Below are positions 8,619 to 31,738 of a stretch of DNA of 55,292 bases, in pieces. The DNA is taken from assembly GCA_045656985.1 (NCBI GenBank), contig JAZOSH010000076.1, forward strand, positions 1-55,292, in the 5' to 3' direction. Made by a program: the position numbers and the translations under genes. Source of the stretch: Eubacteriales bacterium (GTDB lineage: Bacteria > Bacillota > Clostridia > Oscillospirales > CAG-272). Numbering within the stretch: the first letter of the stretch is position 1; every line of letters starts with the position of its first letter. A model generated the notes under the pieces. It saw only the letters and a program-made list of their open reading frames with translations. It made no database searches and was not told the origin of the DNA.

Positions 8619-8658
8619 ATAAAAATAACGAGCGGCAAAAGCCACTCGTCATTTTTAT
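8619..8658 (-). terminator. Terminator-like hairpin after the displaced tRNA 3' half
   Basis: ATAAAAATAACGAGCGGC-AAAA-GCCACTCGTCATTTTTAT imperfect stem. Confidence 0.6.
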
Positions 8659-8713
8659 GGCGGAGAGAGAGGGATTCGAACCCTCGTGTGCTTTCGCACA
8701 AACTGATTTCGAG
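8658..8713 (-). pseudogene. 3' half of split host tRNA-Ser(CGA) (anticodon loop to CCA); left att junction
   Basis: Reverse complement CTCGAAA-TCAGTTTGTGCGAAAGCACACGAGGGTTCGAATCCCTCTCTCTCCGCCA; similarity stops at the anticodon loop. Confidence 0.9.
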
Positions 8714-8907
8714 GAAGATTGTTGTTGTGTTATTTTGTCCCTTTTCGTCCCTTTGCGGTGTTTCTTTTCCTAAAAAACAGCCCTTTTTGTAGAAAAAAGG
8801 AATATAAAATGGAAAAGTGATAGAAAACTGCAAGATAGGAAAGTTTTTCAGAACATGAATTTGCACGCAGAAAAACGCCAAAGAGATGGATATGAAAGGA
8901 CTATAAT

Positions 8908-9183
8908 ATGGAACAAAACGAAATGTATAAAGCAATAGAGCACCTGTTAGAAAACTGTCCCGATGTGCTTACTCCAAAAAAGATTGTAAGATGGAGCCCA
9001 CTAGGAAAAAACACTGTATATGAAATTATAAAAAAAGGAGAATTGAGGTCGTTTAAATATAGAGGCACATATCTGATTGCTAAGAGCGACCTTGTACAGT
9101 ATTTGGTGGATCACGCTAATGATAAGCCTCGCAGGAATCTGTTTGTAAAGGAGAAAATGGCAGATGACAAAGAAGCTATCTAA
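8908..9183 (+). CDS. Excisionase-like helix-turn-helix (HTH_17) protein
   Basis: PDVLTPKKI...GKNTVYEIIKKGELRSFKYRGTYLIAKSDL; just inside left att. Confidence 0.75.
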   Translation: MEQNEMYKAIEHLLENCPDVLTPKKIVRWSPLGKNTVYEIIKKGELRSFKYRGTYLIAKSDLVQYLVDHANDKPRRNLFVKEKMADDKEAI

Positions 9184-9682
9184 AACTGTTACCGCCGAGG
9201 AGGCGGCAAAAATATTGCATATAAGTAAGCGGAAGTGTTCTTGGATGTTAGAGAATGGTATAATTCCATGTGAAGACACTGGAAAGAAAACAAGGCGATA
9301 CACAATATATCGCAAGGACGTACTTGAGTGTTCAAAAATAATGGATAGCATTGAATTTCCGCAAATGTTTTCTGCGGTTAAGGGAAACGTCAAAAAGGAA
9401 AACCTAACGGATGAACAAATCGAAAGCTATACCACATATCTTATCAAAAAATGGGAGGGGGTGAACGACGTGTTGACCGCAAAGATAATTTCTGACGTTT
9501 TAGGTTATAATATTGAAAGTGTACGCCGGTGGTTGCGGTCGGGTAAACTGCAAAGTGTTATCGTTCAAGGTGATTTTGTCGTAGCAAAGCTTTGGCTTGC
9601 AGAGTTTTGTTGCCATTATGGATATCGGATAGTAAAGAAAAGCGATAAACACAAGGCAATTGAAGAGGAATTTTTTGTATAA
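9164..9682 (+). CDS. Protein with two excisionase-like HTH domains
   Basis: TAEEAAKILHISKRK and VLTAKIISDVLGYNIESVRRWLRSGKL. Confidence 0.7.
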   Translation: MTKKLSKTVTAEEAAKILHISKRKCSWMLENGIIPCEDTGKKTRRYTIYRKDVLECSKIMDSIEFPQMFSAVKGNVKKENLTDEQIESYTTYLIKKWEGVNDVLTAKIISDVLGYNIESVRRWLRSGKLQSVIVQGDFVVAKLWLAEFCCHYGYRIVKKSDKHKAIEEEFFV

Positions 9683-9869
9683 CAGAAGCCCAGACATCTG
9701 TCAGGGCTTTTCCGAGTTGTTTAATACTTATTTTGCGCTAACGTTTTGTTTGTCTAAATTTGTATTGAGAGTGTACATAGAAGGGAAAAGGATTTCTATT
9801 AGCCAATTTTGAAAAAATATTGATTTTGGCTAATAGATGTGATATAATATGTATGCGAGGTGATGAATT

Positions 9870-11060
9870 ATGAAACTGATCAAAAGAAAGCAATATTTAG
9901 AAAAGTTAATAAGTGTAATTGGAACACCTGATATTAAGGTTATTACGGGCGTGCGACGTAGTGGCAAATCTAAGCTGTTGGATGCATTCAAAAGTTATGT
10001 CGAGGAAAACATAGCGGATTATAACATAATCCAAATTAATTTTAATTTGCCCGAATACGAGCATCTGTTGACATATCGTGCGTTGTATGATTATATCAAT
10101 GAAAGCTACGAGGCAGGAAAAGAGAATTTTGTTCTTATCGACGAGGTTCAGATGTGTGAAAACTTTGAAAAGGCAATCAACGGTTTGCATGCCTCTGAAA
10201 AATTTGATATTTATATTACTGGATCAAATGCTTTTTTGTTGAGCTCAGACCTTGCTACTTTGTTCACGGGAAGAACTTTTGAAGTTAAGGTCTATCCGTT
10301 CTCATTTGCTGAATATATGGAATATTTTGCCATTTCTGACAAATATGTAGCTTGCGACAAATATATGTTGGAAGGCGGTATGGCGGGTTCATACTTGTAT
10401 CGTGATCAAGAGGCTAAATACGATTATATTGCTGACGTTTTTGATACTCTCATAGTGAGGGATATTCGTCAAAAATATAAAATAAGAAATATGTCTCTTA
10501 TGAATCGTGTTGTTGATTTTTTGATGGACAATATCTCTAATCTTTCCTCTGCGAGAAGTATAACGGATGCTTTGACAGGAGCAAAGGAAAAGGTTAATCA
10601 CACAACGGTTAGCTCATATATTCAGTATCTTTGCAACGCATTTGCCTTTTACAAAATTCGAAGATATGACATCAAGGGTAAAAAATATTTATCAACCAAT
10701 GATAAATACTATTTAAGTGACCATACCTTCAGATATGCAAAACTTGGAACAAAGAATATGGACTATGGAAGAATTCTCGAAAACATTGTTGCGATGGAGC
10801 TTTTGCGCAGAGGTTACGAGGTTTACGCTGGTGTTCTATATAAAAAAGAAATTGATTTTGTGGCAATAAAGCGTAACGAAAAGATGTATATTCAGGTGTC
10901 TGACAATATAAGTGATGAAAAAACATTTGCTAGAGAGGTTGCACCTTTGTTAGAGATTAAAGATGCTTATCCCAAAATGGTAATTGCGAGAACAAGGCAC
11001 GATGAATATCAGCACGAAGGTATTCGCATTGTTGATGTTTCTGATTGGCTGCTTTCGTAA
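9870..11060 (+). CDS. AAA_14 ATPase with DUF4143 domain
   Basis: GVRRSGKS Walker A, LIDEVQ Walker B, ITGSNA, ENIVAMELLRRGY, EIDFVA. Confidence 0.9.
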   Translation: MKLIKRKQYLEKLISVIGTPDIKVITGVRRSGKSKLLDAFKSYVEENIADYNIIQINFNLPEYEHLLTYRALYDYINESYEAGKENFVLIDEVQMCENFEKAINGLHASEKFDIYITGSNAFLLSSDLATLFTGRTFEVKVYPFSFAEYMEYFAISDKYVACDKYMLEGGMAGSYLYRDQEAKYDYIADVFDTLIVRDIRQKYKIRNMSLMNRVVDFLMDNISNLSSARSITDALTGAKEKVNHTTVSSYIQYLCNAFAFYKIRRYDIKGKKYLSTNDKYYLSDHTFRYAKLGTKNMDYGRILENIVAMELLRRGYEVYAGVLYKKEIDFVAIKRNEKMYIQVSDNISDEKTFAREVAPLLEIKDAYPKMVIARTRHDEYQHEGIRIVDVSDWLLS

Positions 11061-11094
11061 ATATAATTTGTGATAAAATTAAAGAAAATGACAG

Positions 11095-11128
11095 AAAACG
11101 AGAGGGAAAATCCCTCTCGTTTTTCTTT
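11095..11128. terminator. Bidirectional terminator
   Basis: AAAACGAGAGGGA-AAA-TCCCTCTCGTTTT. Confidence 0.75.
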
Positions 11129-11139
11129 TGGTTGTTATA

Positions 11140-11400
11140 TTAACTATTAATGCTCTTTGCCTTGGCCTTATATCTTTTAAGAGAAGCCTCAATTTTGCTT
11201 GAAAGATAAGTCATTTGCTCTTGAGTTAATTTAACTCCTTGCTCTGAAAGATACGATATGTAGGCACCTGCAAGAGCACTTTCTGCCGTATTTGATTTGC
11301 TAAAGTAAGCAGTATTATTGTTTTTTTGGCCGAGTTTCTCTATTTCTTTTTCAGAAATGTTGTTGCCAATGATTGCCGTAAATGTTTTTTCAAGATTCAT
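11140..11400 (-). CDS. Hypothetical protein (86 aa)
   Basis: ORF with GGGGA RBS, upstream TATAAT and a downstream terminator. Confidence 0.55.
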   Translation of the reverse strand: MNLEKTFTAIIGNNISEKEIEKLGQKNNNTAYFSKSNTAESALAGAYISYLSEQGVKLTQEQMTYLSSKIEASLKRYKAKAKSINS

Positions 11401-11513
11401 TATAAATCCCCCTGTTTTTGTTTTTATTATAATACTATTTTTGCAATAATTAAACTATCATTTGTAAAGTGTTTTTTAACTAATGGTAAATGTTTGAAAC
11501 CTATTATTGATGT

Positions 11514-11990
11514 TTATTCAACAAAAAATACCTTGCGTATTATTTGCTCCTCGTCAATGATACTTACGTATGGGTATCGGCTGTCTAGGCTATCAGCTCG
11601 ATTATCACCGAGGACAAAGTAACGTCCCTCTCCGAGCGGGAAGGGAATGACTACAAGCCCTGCGTAGTCGGTCTGGCGGTCATCAAAAACGACTTCGTTG
11701 ACGTAAACACGGCCGTCGTGAATGTGTACCCAATCGTTTGGAATGCCGATTACACGCTTAATTATCTTGGTGCCGTCGTCAAGCTTTATAATCACGATGT
11801 CGCCCCTCTCGATTTGAGTGGGCTTGGCACAGAACAGGACCTGCTTGTCTTTGAGTGTAGGAGTCATTGACGTGCCCTGTACTATGCATATTCCTGGTGT
11901 ATGCACAAACATAATGGCAACGTAGATGGCGAAGAAAACAGTTACGATTATGTTTGTCCTTGTTAGCATTGATTGTAATCTGCCTATCAT
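11514..11990 (-). CDS. lepB: Signal peptidase I (S26A)
   Basis: N-terminal TM, GTSMTPTL (Ser), IIKRVIG (Lys), GDNRADSLDSR. Confidence 0.88.
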   Translation of the reverse strand: MIGRLQSMLTRTNIIVTVFFAIYVAIMFVHTPGICIVQGTSMTPTLKDKQVLFCAKPTQIERGDIVIIKLDDGTKIIKRVIGIPNDWVHIHDGRVYVNEVVFDDRQTDYAGLVVIPFPLGEGRYFVLGDNRADSLDSRYPYVSIIDEEQIIRKVFFVE

Positions 11991-12166
11991 ATCCAGTCAT
12001 CGTCAAGGTCAATGTCCGGTGTATCGTATATGGCATCTATAATGTCATAGTAGTCGGCAGAGCGATTCATCCGCTCTTCTTTGAGCCTGTTATAGTCCTC
12101 TTGTGTGATAATCAACACACCATCAAGGTAATTTGGTGTTATAGTAATCATTTCGTTTTTATCCAT
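11987..12166 (-). CDS. Small acidic hypothetical protein (59 aa), not in the ORF track
   Basis: Translated by hand: MDKNEMITITPNYLDG...DIDLDDDWI*; AAGGGGA RBS; ATGA overlap with the signal peptidase start. Confidence 0.6.
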   Translation of the reverse strand: MDKNEMITITPNYLDGVLIITQEDYNRLKEERMNRSADYYDIIDAIYDTPDIDLDDDWI

Positions 12167-12185
12167 CTGTCATTTCCCCTTTCAT

Positions 12186-12468
12186 TTATTCTAAGTTAAA
12201 GTTTTCCTGCATTACTTCTATCGCTGTTCTCATGCCTAAACGGTAGGCATAGGAGAAGATTGCTTCCTCATTTAAGCTGATGTACTCGGTGATGCAGCAT
12301 TCAAGCTTGTCGAACCCCTCAAGGTGTTCGTTTGTAAGTGTATGGTTAAATCAGTCTTGCGTCTTAAAATGTATTCTGTCAGTTGTTTATACTCGTCGGT
12401 TTGCGGTCGGCAATCGGTTTGCGGCGCGATGTTGCCGTGCCATATTTCTTTCGTTATCTCTCTCTCAT
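12186..12468 (-). pseudogene. Frameshifted DUF6809-like small protein
   Basis: GAGG RBS + ATG; across two frameshifts reads MREITKEIWHGNIAPQ...EEAIFSYAYRLGMRTAIEVM. Confidence 0.55.
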
Positions 12469-12819
12469 TCTTACCTCTTTATCTGAAAATTGAGAGAAAA
12501 ATACCGCCACAAAAAACAATCAAAAGTGGCGGTATATCTCCCCTGCCGAGCAGGGATTATATATATACAAAACAAAAAAGGAACTAAGAATCGGCATTCC
12601 GCCTCATCTGCTATAATTATATCACAAACAAGATATACTGTCAAATTTCGAACCCAAATAATCGCTTTTATATAAAGAAAAATCAACTTTTTTAGAAAAA
12701 TAATAAATTTTTTTGAAAATTTTACTTTAGAGTAGCTTGGGTCCGGATTTTTGACTGTTCAAAACGAAATAAATCGTTGCATTAGGTTGGTGAGTAATAG
12801 AAAAGAAGTATAATATATA

Positions 12820-13191
12820 TCAATATTTTTCCGGTGTGATGCCTGTGTGCTTTTTGAAAATTCGGTTGAAATAATATACGTTCTGAACTCCGTATGCAGA
12901 TGATACCTCATCTATGCTGAACATTTCGAATCGGATCATTTGTTTTGCACGCTTTACGGGATTTCTTTGAGAATAAAGGAGCATCGAATAATATTTATCA
13001 ATAATGTTACACAAATTTTTTTGAACCAATGTGCGCAATGGAGTTTTATTGCAAATGCCGTGAGAGCCAAACAGACGCGTTGCTCCCTCAAATGTGAGGC
13101 GGTATCTTACAAAATATTCTGAATAGCAAAGTATGTCGTTTCTTTTGAAATTTATCGGTACTGTTTGGCAGTAACACCTTGTTTTTTGCAA
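12820..13191 (-). pseudogene. Truncated AraC-family regulator remnant
   Basis: C-terminal SIDEVSSAYGVQNVYYFNRIFKKHTGITPEKY is the second AraC HTH; most of the protein is missing. Confidence 0.6.
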
Positions 13192-13244
13192 GATCTTGTG
13201 TTATACTACAACAGTATAACACCGTCTAATAGGAGAGTTGTAAA

Positions 13245-16169
13245 ATGCTACGAGAGGGTCATATTATTAAGCAATGGATCTCAGATATTAAAGCAAATGC
13301 GATTCGCTACGGCAGTCTGCCGTTCTGGTCTTGGAACGATAAGCTACAGGAGAATGAGCTTCGCCGTCAGATTCGCAGGATACATGAGCTTGGGATGAAC
13401 GGTTTTTTTATGCACGCAAGAGGCGGCCTGGAAACCGAATATCTCAGCGATGAGTGGTATGAGCTTACGCGTGCATGCGTTGATGAGGCCCAAAAACTCG
13501 GTATGGAGGCGTGGGCGTACGACGAGAATGGCTGGCCCAGCGGTTTTGCGGGCGGTAAACTCCTTGAGGACGAGAGAAACCACGCCGTTTTTCTGAGTTG
13601 TGTGCAAACTGACGAGTTTCCAACGGATGATGACGTGCTTGGTGTCTATACACTTGTGGATGGTGTGCCGACTCTCGTTACCGCACCGAAAAATGCTCCA
13701 TACACAGTCATCCGCATGGGCAGAGATTCCTCTTATGTCGATACACTCGATGCAGACGTTACGAGAAAGTTCATCGAACAAACGCATGAACAGTATCGGA
13801 AGCGAGTTGGCTTCTCTGAAAATATGCCCGGTTTCTTCACCGACGAGCCTCAGTATTACCGCTACTGCACGCCGTGGTCGCTTAAAATGCCTGCGGAATT
13901 TGAGCGCGCCTACGGCTACAGTGTGCTTTTCGCTCTGCCTGCGCTCTTCTTGGACTTTGATGGCGCTGAGGAGCTTCGCTATGACTACTATCTGCTTTGC
14001 CATAAGCTTTTTATACATAATTTTATCAAAGTAATCTACGATTGGTGCGAAGAAAACGGTTGTATGCTTACGGGTCATGCTGTCGAGGAGCGAAGTCTTA
14101 GCACGCAGATGTGGTGCTGCGGTGGTGTTATGCCATTCTACGAGTATGAGCATATCCCCGGCATCGACTATCTCACCCGACGCATCGACCACGATCTGGC
14201 GGCAAAGCAGCTTGGCTCTGCTTGCGCGCAGCTTGGTAGAAAAAAGGCGTTGTCCGAAATGTTTGGCTGCTGCGGTTGGGACGTCACGCCCCGGGAGCTC
14301 AAGCGTATCGCCGAACTCCAATACGCAAACGGCGTGAATTTGATGTGTCAGCATCTCTACCCATACTCTGAGCGCGGTCAGAGAAAAAACGACTACCCTG
14401 CACACTACTCCGAGCACCTGCCGTGGCAGGACTCGATGAAAGACTTCAATGCTTATTTCAGCAATCTTGGCTATACACTCTCTCGTGGAGATGAGCTTGT
14501 GACGACCTTGATAGTTCACCCCATTCACAGTGCATATTTGCATTACAAGCGCGAACAGAACACAGAATCTATCCGTCGTCTGGAGGATGAAACTCTCGCC
14601 ATTTCTAACCGTTTTTCCTCTCATCAGGTTCCATATCATTGGGGTGATGAGACCATGATGGCAAAGATGGCGCATGTAGAGGGTGACACGCTTTGTGTTG
14701 GCCTCTGCCGCTACCGCTTCGTCGTGATCCCGTACTGCGAGACTCTGGATGCTTTCACAGTCGCTCTTCTGAAGCAATATGTGGAGGGCGGCGGACGTCT
14801 CTTCATTGCAAGTGACGCGCCCTCGCGCATTGACGGTAAGCGGGCAGACCTATCCTTCCTCGTGGGCAACTGTACGTTTGAAGATATCTGCGCGGCGTCT
14901 CCTGTTGTGCTTAACAAGGACGGGAAGTATATTTCGGAGTTACGTATGCAGATCCGCACGACCGACCGTGGCAGGATCGTCTATATCACCAATCCTTCGG
15001 AGCACTCCTTCGTCGATGTGAGCGTCGATATCCGCGAGAGTACTTCCTTCTGCGAATTAGATATGCTCACGCTTATACCGCACGCTGTGCGTGGCGAAGA
15101 TGGCACATTTCTTCTTAATTTCGCATCGGGAGAATCCCACGTTCTTTTTGAGAGCGATGAAATCCCCATGCTTCCCACAGAGCCAACACCCATATCAAAG
15201 GAGAGTGTTCGCCTACCCGAGATATGGCACCTTGTCAATCAGCCCGAAAATGCTATGACGCTTGATTACGTCAGTGTCTCCTACGATGGCGTTCACTTTG
15301 AAAAAAAGGAACCCCTGACTGCCCTAAAAAATCGTCTTTATGAGATGCGTTATCGCGGTGAACTGTGGCTACGCTTTGAATTTGACGTTGAGGAGCTGCC
15401 CGATAGCCTCTGCGTTGCCGCAGAGCCGCTCCGTTACACGAGCTTTTCTGTCAACGGCTCTCCCGTTACGCTGACGGATAAGCCGTGGTTCGACAAAAGC
15501 TTTCTTTCTGCCGACGTTCGCCCTTACGTGAAGGTAGGAAAAAATGAGATCGTCTTTTCTGTTTCCTACTTCCAGAGAGATTACGTGTATTACGTACTTT
15601 TCGGTGACGTCAGCGAATCGCTGAGAAATTGTCTTTGGTTTGATACGGAACTTGAAAATATTTATCTTTTCGGTGATTTTGCGCTGAAAACAGATCGTGC
15701 ACGCTTCGTATACGGCGAGAAAAACAGCGTATGCTACGACGGTTCGTTTGCCGTATGCCGATCGAGAGACGAGGTCCGCCCCTATGACCTTGTCACCGAG
15801 GGCTATCCCTTCTTTGCGGGAAGTGTTACGCTTTGCACAGAGTACACGCACGTATCGGGCGGTCCGACACTCCTTGAGCTTGACGGTCGCTATGCCACGG
15901 CACGAATCCGTCTGAACGGTGCGGACGCAGGCGAGCTTTTCTTCTCGCAGAGCATTGACCTTTCGGGACTGCTTCGTGAGGGCAAAAACGAGCTGACCGT
16001 TACGGTCACAAGTTCAAACCGCAACCTTATGGGACCGCATCATCGTCCTGATCCTGAGCCTTACAGTGTTGGCCCGAGTACTTTCTCGTATGAAGGCGAG
16101 TGGAAAAAAGGTGTATACGATGAAAATTATCTCGAACGATATGCCTTTGTTCGCTTCGGTTTCCAATAA
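13245..16169 (+). CDS. Large glycoside hydrolase (GH106/alpha-L-rhamnosidase-like TIM barrel + beta-sandwich)
   Basis: PFWSWND, FFMHARGG, YDENGWPSG, FFTDEP, PGIDYL, SEMFGC; exact start uncertain. Confidence 0.75.
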   Translation: MLREGHIIKQWISDIKANAIRYGSLPFWSWNDKLQENELRRQIRRIHELGMNGFFMHARGGLETEYLSDEWYELTRACVDEAQKLGMEAWAYDENGWPSGFAGGKLLEDERNHAVFLSCVQTDEFPTDDDVLGVYTLVDGVPTLVTAPKNAPYTVIRMGRDSSYVDTLDADVTRKFIEQTHEQYRKRVGFSENMPGFFTDEPQYYRYCTPWSLKMPAEFERAYGYSVLFALPALFLDFDGAEELRYDYYLLCHKLFIHNFIKVIYDWCEENGCMLTGHAVEERSLSTQMWCCGGVMPFYEYEHIPGIDYLTRRIDHDLAAKQLGSACAQLGRKKALSEMFGCCGWDVTPRELKRIAELQYANGVNLMCQHLYPYSERGQRKNDYPAHYSEHLPWQDSMKDFNAYFSNLGYTLSRGDELVTTLIVHPIHSAYLHYKREQNTESIRRLEDETLAISNRFSSHQVPYHWGDETMMAKMAHVEGDTLCVGLCRYRFVVIPYCETLDAFTVALLKQYVEGGGRLFIASDAPSRIDGKRADLSFLVGNCTFEDICAASPVVLNKDGKYISELRMQIRTTDRGRIVYITNPSEHSFVDVSVDIRESTSFCELDMLTLIPHAVRGEDGTFLLNFASGESHVLFESDEIPMLPTEPTPISKESVRLPEIWHLVNQPENAMTLDYVSVSYDGVHFEKKEPLTALKNRLYEMRYRGELWLRFEFDVEELPDSLCVAAEPLRYTSFSVNGSPVTLTDKPWFDKSFLSADVRPYVKVGKNEIVFSVSYFQRDYVYYVLFGDVSESLRNCLWFDTELENIYLFGDFALKTDRARFVYGEKNSVCYDGSFAVCRSRDEVRPYDLVTEGYPFFAGSVTLCTEYTHVSGGPTLLELDGRYATARIRLNGADAGELFFSQSIDLSGLLREGKNELTVTVTSSNRNLMGPHHRPDPEPYSVGPSTFSYEGEWKKGVYDENYLERYAFVRFGFQ

Positions 16170-16263
16170 TTCTTTATGTAATATCTTAACAGTAAAAAAA
16201 CCAAAGATGGCAGGACTGATCCCTTAATATTCTCTGGTTTAAGTGAATTCCTATCATTAGAAA

Positions 16264-16303
16264 ATATCGGCTGTATTTACCGAAAGGCAAATACAGCCGA
16301 TAT
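16264..16303. terminator. Hairpin between convergent genes
   Basis: AATATCGGCTGTATTT...AAATACAGCCGATATT 16-bp stem. Confidence 0.7.
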
Positions 16304-16397
16304 TACTATGTTCAATCTAAAGGTTTATACTCGGTATTGCAATAGATATTTCAATATTGCTGTAAAGTAGTTGTCGCAATCGCTTTGCCGACGAAAT

Positions 16398-18413: not shown

Positions 18414-18414
18414 G

Positions 18415-19293: not shown

Positions 19294-19302
19294 GGAGATA
19301 AC

Positions 19303-22066: not shown

Positions 22067-22102
22067 TAAAAGTATGGATTTGGAATCGAAGGAGAAAGTG
22101 AT

Positions 22103-23488: not shown

Positions 23489-23701
23489 GTGATTAATAAT
23501 AAAATGTTACAGAGATACCCTAAACATCATAATTATAATAGAACCATATACACAGTTGGAGAATAACAAAACGAGTGCTTATGAAAAAACAATAAGGAGG
23601 ACGAGCCAATGTTATAATTTATCTAGCAACAAAATTGAAAAAATTAAAAACAAAAATTATCAAACAACAAAAACAAAACCAATTGAAAAGGAGAGAACAA
23701 A

Positions 23702-24178: not shown

Positions 24179-24524
24179 CAAAACAACACAAATTATTTCG
24201 GTATAGCCCTCTCGAGTTTTAGAGAGGGCTATACCCCTTTTTTTCTTTCTTTTTTTACTTTTATTTTGCTATTACGACATTTTCTGATATCTGGGCAAGT
24301 CAAATAGCATAATTATAAATGAAAGGGATACAAGGTTGGAGAAGAGAAAACACTTTCTCTATGAAGACATGAAAAACAAAAGAAAAATTAAAGGAGAATA
24401 AAACGATGGAGAGGGATGAAGAAAAATGACAGAGGGAGTGTAGAGGGAAACATAACGGTTACTCTGCATGAAATGCTAGAGTAAACGCTTATGTTTCGTG
24501 CTTGATTGAATTTTGAACCGCTTT

Positions 24525-24679
24525 TTATATAAAGAAATTTTGAAACTTAGAAATTTCTTATATAGGAGAGGGCTTGATTTAACCGAGAAGCGCTATGCGC
24601 ACGGCGGTCCTACCGCGCCGTATATCAGGTGGGGATGCTTCGCTTTAACAGACAATGGCACAAAAATTTCTTTATATAA
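24525..24679. repeat. 17-bp inverted repeat plus a third copy, around a GC-rich hairpin (candidate recombination site or oriT)
   Basis: TTATATAAAGAAATTTT (24525-24541) versus AAAATTTCTTTATATAA (24663-24679); AAATTTCTTATATA at 24551-24564; ACGGCG...CGCCGT at 24601-24621. Confidence 0.6.
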
Positions 24680-24691
24680 CGGAGGTTAATC

Positions 24692-25732
24692 ATGGGACGT
24701 CACAAGTCAACAAAATCGCTTATACAACAGGTCAAGGAAACACTTGACTCCAAGCTTTCAATAGGAGAAAGCAAGTATCTCGCCAAACTTAACGGTACAT
24801 ACACTAATTATATCTTTTCTTGGGAGACGTATCGCAGTTATTTGAAGCACTCGTGCTATTTCATTCGCTGGGTAAAGGAACAGCCTATTGACCCTGTTCT
24901 CGGACACAAACCGCGAACACTTGAAGAGTGTAGAAAAGCGGGTTTTGTGGAGAAATGGATTCAATACAACATTGATCGAGGATTATCGAACTACACCGTG
25001 AAACTTGAGCTTGCCTCGCTCAGTAAGCTCTACGGTTGTAAAAGCACCGATTTTAACATAAAGACTCATCCAAGGAAGAGAGCAAGCATCAAGCGTAGCC
25101 GTCGTAATGACGTTGCGATGGACAAGCACTTTAGTATTACAAAAAACAAAGATCTTATTACATTTTGTCGTTGCACCGGGCTTCGTCGCTCTGAACTTGA
25201 GCAGATTCGTGGTACAGATCTTATTGAACACGAAGGTAAGCTTTTCCTTGACGTGCACAAGGGAACTAAGGGAGGGCGTCTTCGTATCAGCGAAATTTGC
25301 GGATCAGAAGAGGAACTTGAGACAGTAAAAAGACTTTGTGCTGAAGCTGGTTCAAATAAAATTTTCCCTAACCCTCACACTAATGCGGACATTCATTCGT
25401 ATCGTGCTGACTATGCTAAAAGAATTTATAACAAGTACAAAAGGGAATACAGCGAGTTTAAGCACGAAAGGCTTATAGTATACAAAAATAAGATTATCGC
25501 CTCTTATACAACGAAAAATGGAAGAAGAGACGTTAACAAATTCCCTGAACTTTACAAAACGGAAGGGAACCGCAAAAGAATGCTTCCTGGTTATAGGGAT
25601 GTATCAAGTGTCTATTACTGTAGAGTTGATAGAAAAGGGGAGTGTTTCGATAGAAAAGCGTTGTTCGCAGCGAGTAGTTCGTTAGGTCATTCAAGGGAAT
25701 GTTTGGTCGCGGAGCATTATTTATATAGCTAG
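24692..25732 (+). CDS. Atypical tyrosine recombinase
   Basis: TGLRRSEL (R), TKGGRLR (K), IHSYR (HxxR), LGHSR...HYL (H, Y) catalytic set. Confidence 0.8.
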   Translation: MGRHKSTKSLIQQVKETLDSKLSIGESKYLAKLNGTYTNYIFSWETYRSYLKHSCYFIRWVKEQPIDPVLGHKPRTLEECRKAGFVEKWIQYNIDRGLSNYTVKLELASLSKLYGCKSTDFNIKTHPRKRASIKRSRRNDVAMDKHFSITKNKDLITFCRCTGLRRSELEQIRGTDLIEHEGKLFLDVHKGTKGGRLRISEICGSEEELETVKRLCAEAGSNKIFPNPHTNADIHSYRADYAKRIYNKYKREYSEFKHERLIVYKNKIIASYTTKNGRRDVNKFPELYKTEGNRKRMLPGYRDVSSVYYCRVDRKGECFDRKALFAASSSLGHSRECLVAEHYLYS

Positions 25733-26028
25733 AAAACACAATATTTTGATGTGCTACATTTGCGTCGTTTTAGAATTCTTCTTTGGCAACGTTTATGAAC
25801 AAAGCGTTGGCGCTTTGTGTATATTTTATGAATGAAAAAATTTTTTTGCAAAAAAAATTAGTTTTTTAATTTTTAAAAACCTAGTTTTTTCAAGGCTTGC
25901 GAGGAATTTTTGAAAAAAAGCTTATATAATAAAGCCTAATTTTTTGAGTAAAAATCATAATTATAGTGTACGGACAAGTAAAAAACCAATTGAAATTTTG
26001 TGCAAAATTTATGTTAAAGGAGAGTTTT

Positions 26029-26295
26029 ATGACGAAAGCAAAAAGTCAAAAGATAATTAAAAATACCAAACAACTTCAGGAAGTTAATCAACCTACTGCA
26101 GTTGCTAACGAGTGTGTTATTTTAGCAAACGAAAATGACGTCCTGCTTGTTGAGGATGTTCAGCGCATTTTGCGCATTGGCAGAAACAAGGCGTATGAGC
26201 TTGTCTCTAGCGGTAGGATTAAGAGCATCAAAATTGGTACAAAAAGAATCATCCCTAAAACATGTTTGATCGAGTTCCTTAAAAATACAAGTTAG
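26029..26295 (+). CDS. Excisionase-like HTH_17 protein
   Basis: DVLLVEDVQRILRIGRNKAYELVSSGRIKSIKIG; AAGGAG RBS. Confidence 0.8.
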   Translation: MTKAKSQKIIKNTKQLQEVNQPTAVANECVILANENDVLLVEDVQRILRIGRNKAYELVSSGRIKSIKIGTKRIIPKTCLIEFLKNTS

Positions 26296-26322
26296 AGTGG
26301 AATCAATGCTCAAACAAAAAAA

Positions 26323-26448
26323 TTGACAAATTAGCGGCTTTATGGTATAATGATAAAAAAGTCAAGATAACTTGACCACATATTGTTATATTATTGAGGG
26401 TGCCATAAGGCCGTTACACTACAAATCTGCGTGTAACGGCCTTTTTTT
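26323..26448 (+). promoter_or_regulatory. SigA promoter followed by a terminator hairpin upstream of xis-int
   Basis: TTGACA (26323)-17 bp-TATAAT (26346); AAGGCCGTTACAC...GTGTAACGGCCTTTTTTT at 26407-26448. Confidence 0.65.
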
Positions 26449-26476
26449 CCAGTGGGAGAAAAAGAGGGGGTATGAG

Positions 26477-26755
26477 GTGAAAAAAATACAATTTAAGTTG
26501 CCTGTTAGGGAGGGCAGAAGAAGAACAATAGCGATTGACATGAGAAAACACCTCAAAAAATATCCTGATGCAATGAGAGTGTGTGACATAGCCGAAGCAC
26601 TTTCGTGTAGCAAAAACACGATTTACGAGTGGATCGAAAGCGGAGAGCTCTTTAGCGTTACTATGGGAAGGACTATTATTATTCCCAAAAACACGCTAAT
26701 CGAGCATTTAATCAATAAAAAATACTATGTTATAAGAACAAAGGAGAATAATTAA
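26477..26755 (+). CDS. Excisionase-like HTH_17 protein
   Basis: YPDAMRVCDIAEALSCSKNTIYEWIESGEL; directly upstream of the integrase; GTG start chosen from the RBS. Confidence 0.75.
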   Translation: MKKIQFKLPVREGRRRTIAIDMRKHLKKYPDAMRVCDIAEALSCSKNTIYEWIESGELFSVTMGRTIIIPKNTLIEHLINKKYYVIRTKENN

Positions 26756-26756
26756 A

Positions 26757-27953
26757 ATGAAAAGAATTACAGGTCATCTTGAAAAGAAGAACGGCAAGTA
26801 CTATGCCGTGATAAATTTGTACGTGGAAGGCAAGCGAAAGCCCAAGTGGATTAACTTGGATCTTGAGGTGAAAAAAGGAAACAAGAGGAAAGCTGATGCT
26901 CGTCTTGCAGAGGTCCTTGAGAAGTACAATCAAAACAGATCGTATCTTGTAGAGGCTATGAATCCAAAGGAAAGGGAGGCATATAGGATATCCAATTTAT
27001 CCATTTTGGAGTTCCTTGCCGAGTGGTTGGAAGGCCATAAATTGAGCATTGCGTCCTTAACGTATGCCAATTATCAAGGTTATTTGAACGGTCGTATTAA
27101 AGAATACTTTAGTCAAAACAACATTAAAGTTTGCGATGTTACGGAAGAAACTATTACGGGGTTTTATAATTTCCTTCACGATAAAAATCTGTCTAACAAT
27201 AGCATCATAAGATACCACAGCTTTATGCATGTAGCATTTGCGTCGCTCATTCCAAAAAAGGTGCTCGTTTGCAACCCTGTGGGGTTGGTGGATAAGCCCA
27301 AGCCAGAAAAACCTAGAGTTAACTACTACAACAAAAGAGAGCTGATAAAACTCTTAGAGGTATCGAAGAACACAGATCAGTATCTTATTGTACTCATGGC
27401 CGTTTTTTACGGTTTGAGACGCAGTGAGATTATTGGCATTAAGTGGTCGGCAATAGATTTCTCGGACGAAGGAACGATAACTATTAGCCACACTGTAACC
27501 CAGAAAAATGGGGAATTGTTCAAAGCGGATGTGAACAAAAATGACTCGTCGTATAGAACTATGCCCCTTTTGCCAAATGTGCGTGAAGCGCTTATTAGAG
27601 AGAAAGAAAATCAGCAGAGAATGAAGGGGCTCTTTAACAGTGGGTATTGTTTGGAAGACTCGGAATACGTTTTTGTTGATGCTTTGGGGCATCTAATTAA
27701 GCCTGATGACGCAACAAATCACTTTTCTTCCTTTATAGAAAAGAATATGGATAAGAGAATAACGTTGCACGGGCTTCGTCATTCTTGTGCGACTTGTATG
27801 CTCACAAGCAAAACACCCATGAAAAACATTCAGGTTTGGCTTGGGCATTCTGATATGGGGACAACTGCCAATACATACAGCCATGTTGACAGTCACAGCA
27901 TGGATGAAATGGCAAAAACCATTTATGACGTACTTAATGTCGCAGAAAAATAA
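26757..27953 (+). CDS. int: Site-specific tyrosine integrase (Tn916/ICEBs1-type)
   Basis: N-terminal arm-binding region, GLRRSEIIG, LHGLRHSCAT, WLGHSD...NTYSH. Confidence 0.92.
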   Translation: MKRITGHLEKKNGKYYAVINLYVEGKRKPKWINLDLEVKKGNKRKADARLAEVLEKYNQNRSYLVEAMNPKEREAYRISNLSILEFLAEWLEGHKLSIASLTYANYQGYLNGRIKEYFSQNNIKVCDVTEETITGFYNFLHDKNLSNNSIIRYHSFMHVAFASLIPKKVLVCNPVGLVDKPKPEKPRVNYYNKRELIKLLEVSKNTDQYLIVLMAVFYGLRRSEIIGIKWSAIDFSDEGTITISHTVTQKNGELFKADVNKNDSSYRTMPLLPNVREALIREKENQQRMKGLFNSGYCLEDSEYVFVDALGHLIKPDDATNHFSSFIEKNMDKRITLHGLRHSCATCMLTSKTPMKNIQVWLGHSDMGTTANTYSHVDSHSMDEMAKTIYDVLNVAEK

Positions 27954-27981
27954 AAGGACTGAAGCAAAAGCTTCAGTCCTT
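27952..27981. terminator. Terminator hairpin after the integrase
   Basis: AAGGACTGAAGC-AAAA-GCTTCAGTCCTT. Confidence 0.75.
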
Positions 27982-27983
27982 GA

Positions 27984-28007
27984 TGGCGGAGAGAGGGATT
28001 CAAAACC
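27984..28007 (-). repeat. Degenerate copy of the tRNA-Ser 3' end (possible nested att remnant)
   Basis: TGGCGGAGAGAGGGATTCAAAACC versus tRNA TGGCGGAGAGAGAGGGATTCGAACC. Confidence 0.6.
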
Positions 28008-28126
28008 TTAAACAACTTGGTATAATTAAAAAACTTGAACCGTTTCTTTTGAAGGTGTTTTTCTGTATAACAAATTGTATTGCACTCTGAAAAATATGAG
28101 CAATATATTTTCGTTTGATATACTTA

Positions 28127-28155
28127 TTGTATTTTTTGTCGAATTATGATATAAT
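28127..28155 (+). promoter_or_regulatory. SigA-type promoter of the NTPase-synthetase pair
   Basis: TTGTAT-17 bp-TATAAT with extended -10 TG. Confidence 0.55.
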
Positions 28156-28238
28156 TAAATATATTTTATAGTTACTTGCATGTTTGCAAGTCGTTTAAAA
28201 TTTGTTTCGATAAGATTGAAAGATTGGAGAGAGACCAA

Positions 28239-30365
28239 ATGTTAAGAAAAAGTGAAGTCGTAGAATTATACTTAAAATACGGATTTGAATTGGGTGAAGA
28301 AAATGAAAAGAACCTCGTGTTTTTCTCTCAATCCGGATATTTCCAAAATGCGGAAATAGTAATTTTAGATGAAAAAGTTAAAGAAGATAGTATTAATAAA
28401 AAGGAAATAGAAGATATTGGCTATTCCGTAAGAGTAAGAAGATATTCTGATATTAATGAGGTACATGATGCACTTTTTAACGGGTTCTTCTCTACCGCTA
28501 TTTCTAACAAAAAATTCAATCATACATATACTCGGTTTTGTGAGCAACAGAAAAACAAATTAGGTAATAACTACGAATATATAAGTGGGGATTATGTTGA
28601 AAATGGTTCTTTGCAGTCTAATAATGTAATAGACCGTATTGTCGAAATTCTTAACAAAGATGATAGACAATTAATCATACTTGAAGCATCAGCTGGTTTT
28701 GGAAAAACTTGTACTTCTTTTGAAGTTGTTAAAACTTTGATAGATAAAATACCAACAAAAATCCCGCTTCTTACGGAATTATCAAAAAATCGTAAAGCAA
28801 GAGTATTTAGGTATGTTTTGTTATCTGAGATTGATCAAAAATTTCCTTCTTTATCATCAGAATTGGTAACTAGTGAAATAATGGCTGGTCGTATTATTTT
28901 GGTTATTGATGGTTTTGACGAATTGTTGTCAAAAGGATCAACAGAGCTAAGTGATTCTGATAAAACAGTCGGTAAAAATGCTCAAACAATGCTTGACACG
29001 ATTGCTCAATTGATACCCGAAGGTTCAAAAACAAAAATATTACTTACATCAAGAAAAAGTTCAATTTTTGTGGGTGATAATTTTGATAATTGGGTTACAC
29101 AGTATTTAATAGGGTGTAATATAACTAGATTACAATTATCACAACCATCTTTAAAAGATTGGATTGGAACGAAAAAAATAGAGGTATTAAGAAAAAATAA
29201 TATTAATTTAAATAATATTCTCAATCCAGTTTTATTGACTATACTTAGAAATGATTCATTAGAAGAATTCGAAAGCAAATATACAAGTAACGAAAGATTA
29301 ATTGAACAGTATTTGGAGGTTTTGCTTCAAAGAGAAAAGACAAGACAGTCTCTTCCTTTATCAGTAGAGGAACAGCTGTTTATAATGAGAGGGTTATCGG
29401 CAGAAATGGTTAAATTGGATATAACGGCCGATGATGTTGATCTTATAAAATTGATACTGACAGACGTAGTTTCCACAAAAATAGATGATTACTTAAATCG
29501 TTATGACACATTGGGGGATTCATCAGAAACTAAACCAACAGAAGTAGAATTTATAAATAAACTTTCACAGCATGCCTTGCTGGATCGCATTTCTATGCAA
29601 AACAATCAAATTGGATTTATTAACGATTTTATTTTTGGCTTAATGATAGCTCAATCAGCTTTAAAAGGACAATTATCAGTTAACGAATTAAGTGGGAAGT
29701 ATATTGATATTGCTACTACTGCATTTTCTGCTCATGATTTTGATAAGCGCAAAGAGTTATATGATTTAATTACACCATCATTATCCAAAGAATCTGCTCA
29801 ACGCCAAATAGGAGTTTCGTTAAATTTACTTGGAACAATAGCTGGGAAATATGAAAATGAATATTTTGATGGTATGCTTTTTGGAAAAAACATATCGATT
29901 GTAGACGACAATATATTTAACAATTGTATATTCTCCGACTGTGTATTTGATACTTGTAATATTAATGTTAAAGCGTTTAAAACATGTCAATTTTATAATT
30001 GTTCATTTTATAATAATTCATTTGAAGGAAGAGAAGATGTCGACTGCGAATTAACTTTCCTTGCTTGTACAGGTCATGAACAATTTGCGTCATTGGCTTA
30101 CTTTGATAAAAAAAGCAATTTACCGGATAATTCAATTGATTATGAGCGTGTTATATTAGAGCAATTTTGGAAGCCCGGCTATTACAGGGCAGAACCAAAC
30201 CGCTCTTTCCAAGCATTGTTCAAGGGAGTGCCTAACAGTGATAGAGCTAAACTTGTTGATGCTATTGAACTGTTAGTTAAAAAGGGAATCTTAATTAAAA
30301 GAATTCGTGTGTATGAGTTGAATGTTGAAAAAATTGATAGTATCAAAAGTATCATTGGTAGATAA
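28239..30365 (+). CDS. NACHT/STAND-type P-loop NTPase with pentapeptide-repeat region and C-terminal winged-helix-like tail
   Basis: ASAGFGKT Walker A, LVIDGFDEL Walker B, LLTSR sensor, NPVLL; FNNCIFSDCVFDTCN...FYNCSF repeats; start at the ATG after GGAGAG. Confidence 0.8.
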   Translation: MLRKSEVVELYLKYGFELGEENEKNLVFFSQSGYFQNAEIVILDEKVKEDSINKKEIEDIGYSVRVRRYSDINEVHDALFNGFFSTAISNKKFNHTYTRFCEQQKNKLGNNYEYISGDYVENGSLQSNNVIDRIVEILNKDDRQLIILEASAGFGKTCTSFEVVKTLIDKIPTKIPLLTELSKNRKARVFRYVLLSEIDQKFPSLSSELVTSEIMAGRIILVIDGFDELLSKGSTELSDSDKTVGKNAQTMLDTIAQLIPEGSKTKILLTSRKSSIFVGDNFDNWVTQYLIGCNITRLQLSQPSLKDWIGTKKIEVLRKNNINLNNILNPVLLTILRNDSLEEFESKYTSNERLIEQYLEVLLQREKTRQSLPLSVEEQLFIMRGLSAEMVKLDITADDVDLIKLILTDVVSTKIDDYLNRYDTLGDSSETKPTEVEFINKLSQHALLDRISMQNNQIGFINDFIFGLMIAQSALKGQLSVNELSGKYIDIATTAFSAHDFDKRKELYDLITPSLSKESAQRQIGVSLNLLGTIAGKYENEYFDGMLFGKNISIVDDNIFNNCIFSDCVFDTCNINVKAFKTCQFYNCSFYNNSFEGREDVDCELTFLACTGHEQFASLAYFDKKSNLPDNSIDYERVILEQFWKPGYYRAEPNRSFQALFKGVPNSDRAKLVDAIELLVKKGILIKRIRVYELNVEKIDSIKSIIGR

Positions 30366-30377
30366 AATGGGGGATTT

Positions 30378-31292
30378 ATGATGTCAATAGATAAAGATTT
30401 TTTAGAAAAACAAATTGGAGCAATATCCCCAGCAATAGCACATGAATTAGAACGAGAAATATCACAAAAATTTGACAAATGTGGTATATTTTATAGGATT
30501 TTTTCTCGATGCAAAAGTGCTGCATCAACTGTTGAAAAACTAACAAAAAAAGAAGAAGAATACAAAAAAAAGAATAAAAAGATGCAAGATTTGCTTGGAG
30601 TTAGAGTAGCACTTTATTTTAAAGATGATATTGATTTATGTATAAAAATAATTGAAAACTGTTTTAACACAGTGGAAATAGTAAGAGATGAGGAGAAAAG
30701 CGAGGAATTTAGTCCTATGCGACTTAATATGGTGTGTAAAATGCCTGATTCTATCATTTCTTCCTTTTCGTCAGAAATTTGGGAGTTTCCCATTGATAAA
30801 ACATTTGAAATACAGATTCGAACAATATTTTCGGAGGGGTGGCACGAAGTAGAACATGATTTGAGATATAAGCATAAGAGCGATTGGAAAGCACATATAG
30901 ATTTGTCACGTAACTTAAATGGTATTTTTGCAACATTAGAGACATGTGATTGGGCGATACTTAATGTCTTGGATCAACTAGCATATCAAAAATATAAAGC
31001 CAAAGATTGGGATGCAATGCTTCGTAATCACCTTAGAATACGTATGGATAATAGCAATCTTTCAGATAAAATAATAAAATTATTTAATGAAGATATTAAC
31101 TTGGCCAAAGAGTTCTTTAAGGTTGACAGAAAAAGGTTGTTATTATATTTAAGTAATCCATCTATGCGATTTGTACCAAAAAAACTGGACAATATAGTTT
31201 TTTTAATCAATGAGTTAATTATTAAGAATCCCAAATTATCAGAAATAGTACCGACAACTATTAAGAATCTTGTTAGAAAAATGGATGATTAA
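30378..31292 (+). CDS. RelA/SpoT-type nucleotidyltransferase (small alarmone synthetase-like)
   Basis: SRCKS, QDLLGVRV, FEIQIRT, WHEVEHDLRYK; no hydrolase domain. Confidence 0.85.
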   Translation: MMSIDKDFLEKQIGAISPAIAHELEREISQKFDKCGIFYRIFSRCKSAASTVEKLTKKEEEYKKKNKKMQDLLGVRVALYFKDDIDLCIKIIENCFNTVEIVRDEEKSEEFSPMRLNMVCKMPDSIISSFSSEIWEFPIDKTFEIQIRTIFSEGWHEVEHDLRYKHKSDWKAHIDLSRNLNGIFATLETCDWAILNVLDQLAYQKYKAKDWDAMLRNHLRIRMDNSNLSDKIIKLFNEDINLAKEFFKVDRKRLLLYLSNPSMRFVPKKLDNIVFLINELIIKNPKLSEIVPTTIKNLVRKMDD

Positions 31293-31439
31293 TGAAGATT
31301 ACATAAGGAAAATAAGCTTTGCTTGCAAGGCTTATTTTTCTTATACGGTGATATAATATTGTTTAATCGTGTGTTAGATTTTACTTGATAAGGAGGATTC
31401 ATATGATAGTTCCCAAAGATTTTAATGTTGTTTCTAGAG

Positions 31440-31475
31440 AAAAAACGGAGTTTTTGCTTGCAACAAAAACTCCGT
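31440..31475 (-). terminator. Terminator of the element-borne tRNA
   Basis: ACGGAGTTTTTG...CAAAAACTCCGT stem with T-run on the minus strand. Confidence 0.75.
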
Positions 31476-31478
31476 AAA

Positions 31479-31567
31479 TGGCGGAGAGAGAGGGATTCGA
31501 ACCCTCGTGGGATTGCTCCCAAACGCATTTCGAGTGCGCCCCGTTATGACCACTTCGATATCTCTCC
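31479..31567 (-). tRNA. tRNA-Ser(CGA), intact, element-borne
   Basis: GGAGAGATATCGAAGTGGTCATAACGGG-GCGCA-CTCGAAA-TGCGT-long variable arm-GGTTCGAATCC-CTCTCTCTCC-G-CCA. Confidence 0.95.
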
Positions 31568-31698
31568 GTAGTATTAAATTGTAAAGAAATTTGAAAGGAA
31601 ACTGAAAGATGGACTTTGTAAAATCTGCACACAAAATTCAAAAAAATCCAGATTTCACCGCAGTTTGAAAGGAGAGAAGTGTGACGACATTGAAACTC

Positions 31699-31738
31699 TT
31701 TCGAGTCAGCCCCGTTATGACCACTTCGATATCTCTCC
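31699..31738 (-). pseudogene. 5' half of split host tRNA-Ser(CGA); right att junction
   Basis: Reverse complement GGAGAGATATCGAAGTGGTCATAACGGGGCTGA-CTCGAAA; its GCTGA stem pairs with TCAGT of the 8658-8713 half. Confidence 0.9.

Follow-up and report, generated by a model that had tools for sequence, protein, structure and literature searches.

An integrative element of a gut clostridium that splits a host tRNA-Ser(CGA) gene and apparently supplies a whole replacement

The window analysed here, a stretch of 55,292 nucleotides (nt) from an Eubacteriales bacterium (contig JAZOSH010000076.1 of assembly GCA_045656985.1; CAG-272, Oscillospirales, Clostridia), holds an island of 22,985 bp (positions 8714-31698) that splits a host tRNA-Ser(CGA) gene and contains a complete tRNA-Ser(CGA) gene of its own. 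We regard it as very probable that the island is an integrative element that was inserted by its own tyrosine integrase into the anticodon loop of the host gene, left that gene broken and substituted a whole tRNA for it. Loci and genomes of relatives are cited below by L and G numbers where they have to be told apart.

The host gene lies in two pieces on the minus strand. Its 5' stub (31738-31699, 40 nt) consists of the 5' strand of the acceptor stem, the D arm, the 5' strand of the anticodon stem and the 7-nt anticodon loop, and its 3' half (8713-8658, 56 nt) runs from the anticodon loop through the 3' strand of its stem, the variable arm, the T arm and the 3' strand of the acceptor stem to CCA. 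A preliminary description, made from the letters of the window alone, had claimed a split at the anticodon loop in which the halves overlap in the loop only, and the coordinates bear this out: the 7-nt loop is the only sequence that the two pieces have in common, and the bases adjoining it are unlike each other at the left and right junctions. Rejoined into a full tRNA, as that description proposed, the stub and the 3' half are letter-for-letter the intact tRNA-Ser(CGA) of two congeners (L004, L005) and are one base off the intact gene of four others (L006, L007, L009, L010). Because the halves match the intact gene of relatives, the split is not a product of chance.

The empty site is seen in relatives that lack the island. 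We searched 72 genomes of the genus and fetched the 29 best loci of relatives; in a number of these (L006/L028, L020, L024, L026, L033 and others), the sequence of window positions 8654-8713 is contiguous with that of 31699-31926/31928, with an overlap of exactly 7 nt, and two of them (L033, L026) additionally resemble the left flank of the window farther out. Relatives without the island thus carry the rejoined tRNA gene. With one copy of the core, the excised circle would measure 22,992 bp, and the size predicted earlier agrees with this arithmetic. On the element side, the DNA adjoining the core is non-tRNA at both junctions, and ARAGORN, which calls two tRNA genes in the window, calls none there; neither junction restores a tRNA.

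The complete tRNA-Ser(CGA) of the element starts 131 nt from the core, in the same orientation as the stub. Its place about 130 bp inside the right end and its different anticodon stem and variable arm had been noticed before, and it differs from the host halves at nine positions, of which 2+2 are compensatory changes in the anticodon stem and five lie in the variable arm. Among the 37 tRNAs of the assembly (103 contigs, 93.8% complete), it is the only copy of tRNA-Ser(CGA), and UCG accounts for 12.5 per 1000 codons and 19% of serine codons in 752 long open reading frames (ORFs). Eighteen distinct element-borne tRNAs share one cloverleaf with an invariant loop, and in 18 of their 26 predicted pairs at least one sequence has changed on both sides with the pair kept, a pattern that shows the element tRNAs to be intact genes; evolution inside the elements is not implied, since the copies come from diverse lineages. 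In relatives, by contrast, several stubs have decayed: the loop of L019 is mutated, L027 has a number of changes, and L031 has gained an insertion. The insertion in the last of these 5' stubs (L031, G024:C6, ~1359-1450) is ~50 nt long and lies in the D loop; a similar truncated stub occurs in L016.

The integrase gene of the island is convergent with the element tRNA. Its ORF is full length, with R221, K261, H338, R341, H364 and Y374 at the usual catalytic positions, and these six residues are invariant in an alignment of eight members (the window and seven relatives). The N-terminus of ~60 amino acids is also conserved across the aligned family; no arm-binding domain was detected in the integrase by Pfam. 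Homologues with 33-48% identity are convergent with the tRNA after a stub in six genomes (G075, G081, G021, G089, G091, G092), and another stands beside the tRNA in G052. From this conserved position beside the tRNA in relatives, we infer that the integrase of the window made the insertion.

The DNA on either side of the core also has counterparts in relatives. The left arm aligns with an arm of ~170 nt that is conserved in five loci with a lone 3' half (L003, L008, L012, L030, L011), and the motifs GTCCCTTTTCGTCCCT and AAGTGATAGAAAA are shared with them. Small genes upstream of the integrase gene are also found in L165 and L163, and HTH_17 genes stand beside it in L171, L169, L177 and L175. 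The HTH_17 pair that leads away from the left junction (8908-9682) has a PHROG excisionase match (1.7e-8), and one of its products, of 172 amino acids, is remotely homologous (E 1e-8) to the HTH_17 protein encoded nearest the arm in L177.

Taken as a mechanism, the integrase would recombine, in a site-specific manner, a 7-bp overlap identical with the anticodon loop. For tyrosine recombinases at anticodon-loop sites, the stem strands of the bacterial attachment site (attB) would act as inverted core-type binding sites. Since the attachment site of the element (attP) carries no tRNA half, the host gene would stay broken upon integration, and because this site has only the 7-bp loop, a 5' stub would be left as well as the displaced 3' half. 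The element tRNA would land downstream of the host tRNA promoter, transcription from that promoter would pass through the stub and the spacer, and the tRNA would be cut out by the normal tRNA-processing enzymes and take the place of the lost tRNA-Ser(CGA). The two core copies are identical, and excision, by the integrase and an HTH_17 protein acting as directionality factor, would therefore return the host gene to its exact original form.

The surroundings of the element tRNA fit transcription from the host promoter. A promoter-like site (TTGCAA, 17 nt, TATAAT, with TG; 31983-31955) lies upstream of the stub, a simple consensus scan finds no consensus promoter in the spacer, and a terminator-like hairpin directly follows the tRNA, with a matching hairpin in L165 and L177. 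The layout of L165 is that of the window, with a promoter-like site upstream of the stub, none in the spacer and the terminator after the tRNA. The preliminary description had placed the tRNA in the same orientation as the host promoter, which the strand and the promoter-like site upstream confirm; its further point, that the tRNA complements the lost gene, is one that we also infer from this layout.

Between the promoter-like site and the host tRNA lies a leader of ~190 nt (31739-31928) that is 83-94% identical in congeners and has no Rfam match. It carries a perfect 15-bp palindrome adjoining the tRNA, and its opening 10 nt are those with which the tRNA begins; they lie 165 nt before the start of the host tRNA, a distance near the 171-nt period from stub to tRNA. 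A leader-plus-tRNA block of the identical type follows a type A stub and spacer (defined below) in L023, L027 and L100. These features suggest that a leader-plus-tRNA block can be element-borne and that the leader may be the old scar of an earlier split-and-replace event.

Within the genus, at least 12 of the 29 fetched loci have, by motif scan, a stub that leads into a spacer and a complete tRNA, or one that leads into a further stub; in L021 and L029, the alignment runs through the spacer into a decayed stub. Two junction types recur. In type A, the spacer measures 131 nt and the tRNA matches the commonest intact tRNA of the genus letter for letter; in type B, the spacer measures 151 nt and the tRNA carries the GCGCA/TGCGT stem. 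The spacer of the window is a diverged form of type A, and its tRNA resembles type B. In L022/L165, a type A stub is followed by a type B stub and then by the tRNA and integrase, an order that we read as a type B element landed in the tRNA delivered by a type A element. Integrase homologues with E of 1e-30 or less occur in 16 of 71 congeners, the closest being 39-48% identical, and the distance from integrase gene to tRNA is ~100 bp in G081 and G021 and ~870 bp in G075, which has a mutated stub loop and no match to the 3' half. No complete element was recovered within the genus, and the contigs of G075, G003, G005 and G055 end inside elements. Separately, in L012 (G005:C60), the final ~21 nt of the tRNA, from T loop to CCA, are present twice more, at ~1116 and ~1308, ~190 nt apart and 3' of the lone 3' half; these copies look like remains of classical elements that target the 3' end of the same tRNA gene.

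Beyond the genus, a pattern scan with one genome per species gave at least 120 loci and at least 130 matches to the 5' half of the tRNA. Among the 130 matches listed, 96 are intact genes, two are cut or damaged and 32 are stubs. Of the listed stubs, 23 have at least 200 nt of downstream sequence; a complete tRNA-Ser(CGA) comes next on the same strand in 17 of them, at a distance of 37-415 nt (median 147), and another stub or a damaged tRNA comes next in three. Any complete tRNA-Ser(CGA) within 600 nt of a stub has the orientation of that stub, and no copy on the opposite strand was found. According to the record titles, the hosts include Lachnospiraceae, Oscillospiraceae, Acutalibacteraceae, Ruminococcaceae and others, and among them are isolates such as Eubacterium coprostanoligenes ATCC 51222 and a Flavonifractor strain. 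Many Clostridia share a module in which a 5' stub, a spacer of ~130-160 nt and a complete tRNA are accompanied by a convergent integrase.

Individual members of this wider set show the element at different sizes and in different states. The Flavonifractor isolate (G089) has the stub, tRNA and convergent integrase and, ~17 kb away, the lone 3' half on a single contig, and the acceptor-stem strands of its stub and 3' half are complementary. Its element (L169, G089:C11, locus 7384-14548) encodes a Mob_Pre relaxase (9.4e-54) and type I-C Cas3, Cas5d, Csd1 and Cas1, and looks like a mobilizable element carrying CRISPR-Cas. The whole element of G091 is ~4.5 kb long and has an integrase gene, two HTH_17 genes and a gene for a DUF6017/HTH_36 protein. 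In a phage collection, the best integrase matches are four small unannotated 'Bacteriophage sp.' records from faecal samples, two of which (L174, L176) are integrated copies with stacked stubs; we rejected the four records as excised circles, none having a terminal overlap that would show circularity. In L177, the core is followed by 141 nt, a complete tRNA and the integrase gene, and the opposite side of the core has HTH_17 genes and ParA/ParB. The resulting order (HTH_17, HTH_17, arm, core, arm, tRNA, int, HTH_17) is that of the two ends of the window joined, and since non-tRNA DNA flanks the core on both sides, L177 is apparently an unintegrated, free attP. L175 (MT840019.1) has, at ~2815-2903, only the 3' half of a tRNA-Ser joined to the loop core beside the integrase gene, and its integrase is 37% identical to that of the window; the classical, reconstructing design and the whole-tRNA design thus both occur in one integrase family. 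Relatives in the family carry MobV, ParA/ParB, RepA_N, CRISPR-Cas or toxin genes, and a plasmid collection gave distant integrase matches only (37% identity or less). The island belongs to this family of gut Clostridia, whose small integrative elements gather defence and metabolic cargo and in some cases are plasmid-like or mobilizable.

Several observations weigh against our reading of the island. The promoter argument comes from simple consensus scans and is weak evidence: one relative (L171) has a weak promoter-like site within the spacer, and the scanned stretch of L177 has no promoter-like site, so that a promoter serving the tRNA in the free form may be invisible to the scan. No tRNA follows three of the 23 listed stubs with at least 200 nt of downstream sequence. 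A tRNA-Ser(UGA) gene, called by ARAGORN with Rfam in agreement, lies 5 kb from the island at 36483-36571, and a second tRNA-Ser(CGA) may lie on unassembled DNA, the assembly being 93.8% complete. Since wobble might let tRNA-Ser(UGA) read UCG, the replacement may be helpful rather than essential. A search of sequencing runs gave small shares only (at most 0.19 of the sampled words), and contigs of four gut metagenome runs were compared with positions 13000-32990, a stretch that leaves the left junction outside; no same-strain contig in these runs extends over the right junction, and their contigs give no read evidence for excision, a circle or a same-strain empty site. In one run (X1), parts of the sugar cluster and of 30749-31403 are present as short, near-identical pieces, at low depth. 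Joints from 31509 or 31570 to 31699 in run contigs were set aside: their sides are short (19-28 letters), other letters stand between them, and we read them as tRNAs of other organisms. Finally, no relaxase, replication or partition genes were found by Pfam in the window, and its two arms share seven 10-mers against 3.6 expected, a number reached in 34 of 200 shuffles. The arms of the window may have diverged or may be decaying, with the island possibly fixed in place.

These last points bear on the alternative that survives best, which concerns present activity only and not origin: the island was integrated as described, no longer excises or transfers, and its tRNA is now the gene of the host. 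We treat this as quite possible, if tentative. The repeats between the arms stand at chance level, and no relaxase, Rep or Par gene was found by Pfam. Moreover, ~10 kb of the island is cargo of host-like G+C with a truncated AraC piece, the space between the integrase gene and the tRNA, which measures ~100-870 bp in relatives, is here occupied by a low-G+C insert, and in some relatives with stub, spacer and tRNA no lone 3' half was found (G075, with its mutated loop). In the type A relative G003, the arms share 21 10-mers against 1.7 expected, a number reached in none of 200 shuffles, and in L177 paired repeats can be seen by eye on both arms. A fossil is harder to reconcile with an integrase of full length that has all six catalytic-type residues, with perfect core copies and with a stub and 3' half that are unmutated relative to L004 and L005, and all four HTH_17 ORFs are open; the unmutated halves and the intact integrase argue for a recent event, and the island may still be mobile.

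It is less probable, and in our judgement unlikely, that the tRNA is kept for a reason other than replacement, such as escape from anticodon nucleases or tRNA-targeting defence, codon supply for the element or a passenger acquired by imprecise excision, the loss of the gene being tolerated by a host whose tRNA-Ser(UGA) reads UCG. Such roles would agree with the presence of tRNA-Ser(UGA), with the defence-type genes in the island and its relatives and with the frequent difference between element tRNA and host copy in the anticodon stem, and counter-defence has been raised as a possible selective force in the accessible text on tRNA-carrying phages (PMC10865867). They do not account for an anticodon that is always that of the destroyed gene, nor for the co-orientation of every complete tRNA-Ser(CGA) lying 600 nt or less from a stub. 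The tight distance from the core (median 147 nt among the matches listed) suits a replacement cassette better than it does a free-standing accessory gene, the island uses UCG no more often (11.0 per 1000) than the genome does (12.5 per 1000), and complementation has been shown experimentally in the published phage system, as the same text describes (PMC10865867). An artefact, whether a chimeric contig or a classical island later rearranged so as to leave a stub upstream of a regenerated tRNA, is extremely improbable: the assembly is fragmented (103 contigs), the 30 nt that the element tRNA has in common with the stub, and likewise with the lone 3' half, could confuse an assembler, and L175 shows the classical mode to exist in the same integrase family, but a mis-join at 30-mers would yield hybrid tRNAs rather than loop-ended pieces with arms homologous to those of other elements, the element tRNA differs in a compensatory manner in both halves and so is not a hybrid of host and element, L177 has the core and a whole tRNA with no tRNA half on either side, and the same layout stands on one contig of the isolate G089 and recurs in many independent assemblies, which makes mis-assembly, the doubt raised at the outset, unlikely.

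The preliminary description had also proposed that the element tRNA may escape recognition by the integrase through its altered anticodon stem, and this is not supported as a general feature. In six relatives with a type A junction (L014, L016-L019, L163), the tRNA is identical to the commonest intact tRNA of the genus, and such a type A-borne copy has apparently been hit again where stubs are stacked (L022/L165, L100). L047 has two near-identical junctions, one after a GCGCA stub and one after a GCTGA stub, and other lineages contain split tRNAs that have the GCGCA stem themselves (at least 10 stubs of the junction type, plus one that a contig end cuts off). The loci fetched from this genus include no GCGCA stub, their numbers being too small for a test. 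GCGCA is common as a native stem (37 of the 96 intact genes among the matches listed), and the stem difference is therefore more simply explained by a foreign origin of the element tRNA.

We also put forward, as a doubtful idea, that these elements drive the turnover of tRNA-Ser(CGA): each arrival would kill the working copy and install its own under the resident promoter, and the 'host' gene would often be the relic of an earlier element. The idea is prompted by the stubs stacked upstream of a working copy (L022/L165, L100, L047, L174, L176), by the identity of the type A tRNA to the commonest tRNA of the genus, by the tRNA-like start of the leader and by the leader-plus-tRNA block that appears to be element-borne. 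A whole tRNA in cis would also free an element from having to match the acceptor and anticodon stems of its host, with a wider host range across families.

The remaining contents of the island are listed in Table 1. No phage structural, packaging or lysis families, such as those of capsid, tail, terminase or portal, were found among the 23 island ORFs examined with Pfam and the 13 examined with PHROGs, and by gene content the island is not a prophage. As for an integrative and mobilizable element, which has its own relaxase and origin of transfer (oriT), no relaxase family was found in the island by Pfam, and an oriT was not searched for. The NACHT NTPase and the RelA_SpoT protein form a candidate defence pair on the basis of their domains; the pair has no PADLOC match. 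The divergent recombinase-like ORF at 24692-25732 gives weak values with Pfam Phage_integrase (E 0.013) and with BLASTP against the main integrase (E 0.009), and may be what is left of another element, or else act as an accessory recombinase. It is the sole hint of a second element. We considered a composite or tandem island and rejected it: within 8714-31698 there are no internal arm motifs, loop-plus-stem pieces or tRNA end fragments, and with one stub and one 3' half the island is read as a single insertion that gathered cargo. Outside the island, ~125 nt just 3' of the host tRNA end (8519-8642) are single-copy in the window and include two opposed T-arm-like pieces; this sequence matches many places in congeners at 71-92% identity (most of 10 matches in G027, many of 11 in G005 and several in G021) and could be a small repeat element or the remains of other attachment sites.

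Table 1. Features of the island and its junctions, with positions in the window
Feature	Position	Strand	Basis or remark
Host tRNA-Ser(CGA) 3' half, left junction	8658-8713	-	core copy 8707-8713
Left arm (P arm)	8714-8900		carries GTCCCTTTTCGTCCCT (8737-8752) and AAGTGATAGAAAA (8815-8827); alignment with relatives
Two HTH_17 genes, excisionase/regulator-like, leading away from left junction	8908-9183, 9164-9682	+	Pfam 2.1e-7, 4.4e-10
AAA_14/DUF4143 ATPase, candidate defence protein PDC-S01	9870-11060	+	Pfam; PADLOC PDLC04787 4e-149
S26/S24-type peptidase	11514-11990	-	Pfam Peptidase_S26 9.5e-30; weak PHROG repressor-family matches
Cargo block, host-like G+C 0.40-0.52, sugar catabolism, ~10 kb	12820-23188		Pfam; composition profile
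Truncated AraC piece	12820-13191		Pfam
GH106-like glycosidase	13245-16169		Pfam
AraC regulator	16398-17255		Pfam
Two GFO/IDH/MocA oxidoreductases, xylose-isomerase-like TIM barrel	within 12820-23188		Pfam
Glucosamine-6-P isomerase-like protein, amidohydrolase, pectate-lyase-like protein	within 12820-23188		Pfam
Lar-like small protein	23702-24178	+	Lar_restr_allev 6.7e-6, 26.7 bits, below the Pfam cut-off of 28.6
Divergent tyrosine-recombinase-like ORF, 346 amino acids, GLRRSE box	24692-25732	+	PHROG integrase 1.7e-9
Two HTH_17 genes directly upstream of int, candidate excisionase/regulator	25966-26295, 26372-26755	+	Pfam 2.4e-11, 1.6e-9
Tyrosine integrase (int), convergent with element tRNA	26757-27953	+	Pfam Phage_integrase 1.7e-21 and SAM-like domains
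Low-G+C (0.29-0.32) insert between int and tRNA	28176-31292	+	composition profile; Pfam
NACHT-type NTPase with inactive restriction-endonuclease-like N-terminus	28176-30365	+	NA-iREase2 1e-27, NACHT 1.4e-4
RelA_SpoT-domain protein	30378-31292	+	Pfam RelA_SpoT 1.4e-17
Terminator-like hairpin, 14 pairs then T run, directly after element tRNA	31445-31475	-	sequence scan
Complete tRNA-Ser(CGA), element-borne, anticodon stem GCGCA/TGCGT	31479-31567	-	ARAGORN; Rfam tRNA 53 bits
Spacer, 131 nt, right arm (P' arm)	31568-31698		aligns with 131-nt type A spacers of relatives
Host tRNA-Ser(CGA) 5' stub, right junction	31699-31738	-	core copy 31699-31705
Host upstream region	31739-31983	-	leader 31739-31928 and promoter-like site

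The closest known parallel is the tRNA-dependent lysogeny of actinobacteriophages (Guerrero-Bustamante and Hatfull, mBio 2024; PMC10865867). In the accessible text of that paper, the phages concerned are Fionnbharth with subcluster K4, cluster L, Cain, Gaia and the Gordonia CQ2/DL phages, the phage-borne cognate tRNA is required for viable lysogens, and the authors expect such systems outside actinophages. As described there, those phages and the island share a tyrosine integrase with an attB inside a host tRNA gene, a short core (8-17 bp in the phages, 7 bp here), the absence of a functional tRNA at either junction and a cognate tRNA on the element. Both also have integrase relatives of the classical mode, namely Boilgate and Ximenita for the phages (PMC10865867) and L175 for the island, and the occurrence of both designs in one integrase family has been reported for mycobacteriophage cluster K.

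The differences, again as far as that text goes, are several. The phages integrate in Actinobacteria at tRNA-Lys, tRNA-Ile2 or tRNA-Leu, whereas the element described here resides in gut Clostridia at tRNA-Ser(CGA); they are temperate phages, whereas no phage gene was found in the island, which is therefore not a member in the strict phage sense. The Fionnbharth tRNA overlaps gene 37, apart from attP-int, and has its own strong promoter (PMC10865867). Unlike it, the tRNA of the island lies 131 nt from the core, is co-oriented with the broken gene and has no consensus promoter before it and a terminator after it. Stacked stubs from repeated hits are found in the family studied here and are not mentioned for actinobacteriophages in the accessible text, and essentiality of the host tRNA has been shown for the phages (PMC10865867), whereas replacement in the island is suggested by sequence.

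With canonical islands as treated by Islander (PMC4383910), the element shares an internal tyrosine integrase, a crossover in the anticodon loop, a displaced 3' tRNA fragment at the far end and tandem or nested arrays; its lone 3' half (8658-8713) lies on the same strand as the element tRNA, as a displaced fragment should. An Islander-type attP, however, holds a tRNA fragment and regenerates the target (PMC4383910), whereas the attP here would hold the loop only and be accompanied by a whole tRNA in cis. Compared by description only (via PMC10865867), the Lactobacillus johnsonii prophage Lj965 is also from Firmicutes and is said to rebuild no tRNA at its junction and to encode a cognate tRNA; it is a prophage, whereas no phage genes were found in the island. 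Set beside the actinobacteriophage study (PMC10865867), the strategy is not new in principle, and what is new is its use by non-phage elements, the host group, the target, the position of the tRNA beside the core and the stacked stubs. The literature searched, which leaves subscription journals largely outside, contains no description of this tRNA-Ser(CGA) family or of non-phage elements using the strategy, and its distribution is wide and, it appears, undescribed.

These findings have practical consequences for annotation and engineering. Island finders that look for a regenerated tRNA plus a displaced fragment would misplace the boundary of such an element ~170 bp too far in and would count the element tRNA as a host gene. 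An integrase with a short-core attP and a tRNA cassette makes a design for a self-complementing integration vector in Clostridia that are hard to engineer, a use that has also been suggested for mycobacteria in the accessible text of the phage study (PMC10865867). For the biology of the family, the tRNA is apparently read from the promoter of the gene that it replaces, a testable difference from the phage systems. Dead stubs make up 32 of the 130 copies of the 5' half of this tRNA among the matches listed, and phylogenies and counts of tRNA genes in these bacteria partly record mobile elements. In gut Clostridia, a large family of small non-phage integrative elements appears to have as its standard design a destroy-and-replace strategy for which the experimental evidence comes only from actinobacteriophages.

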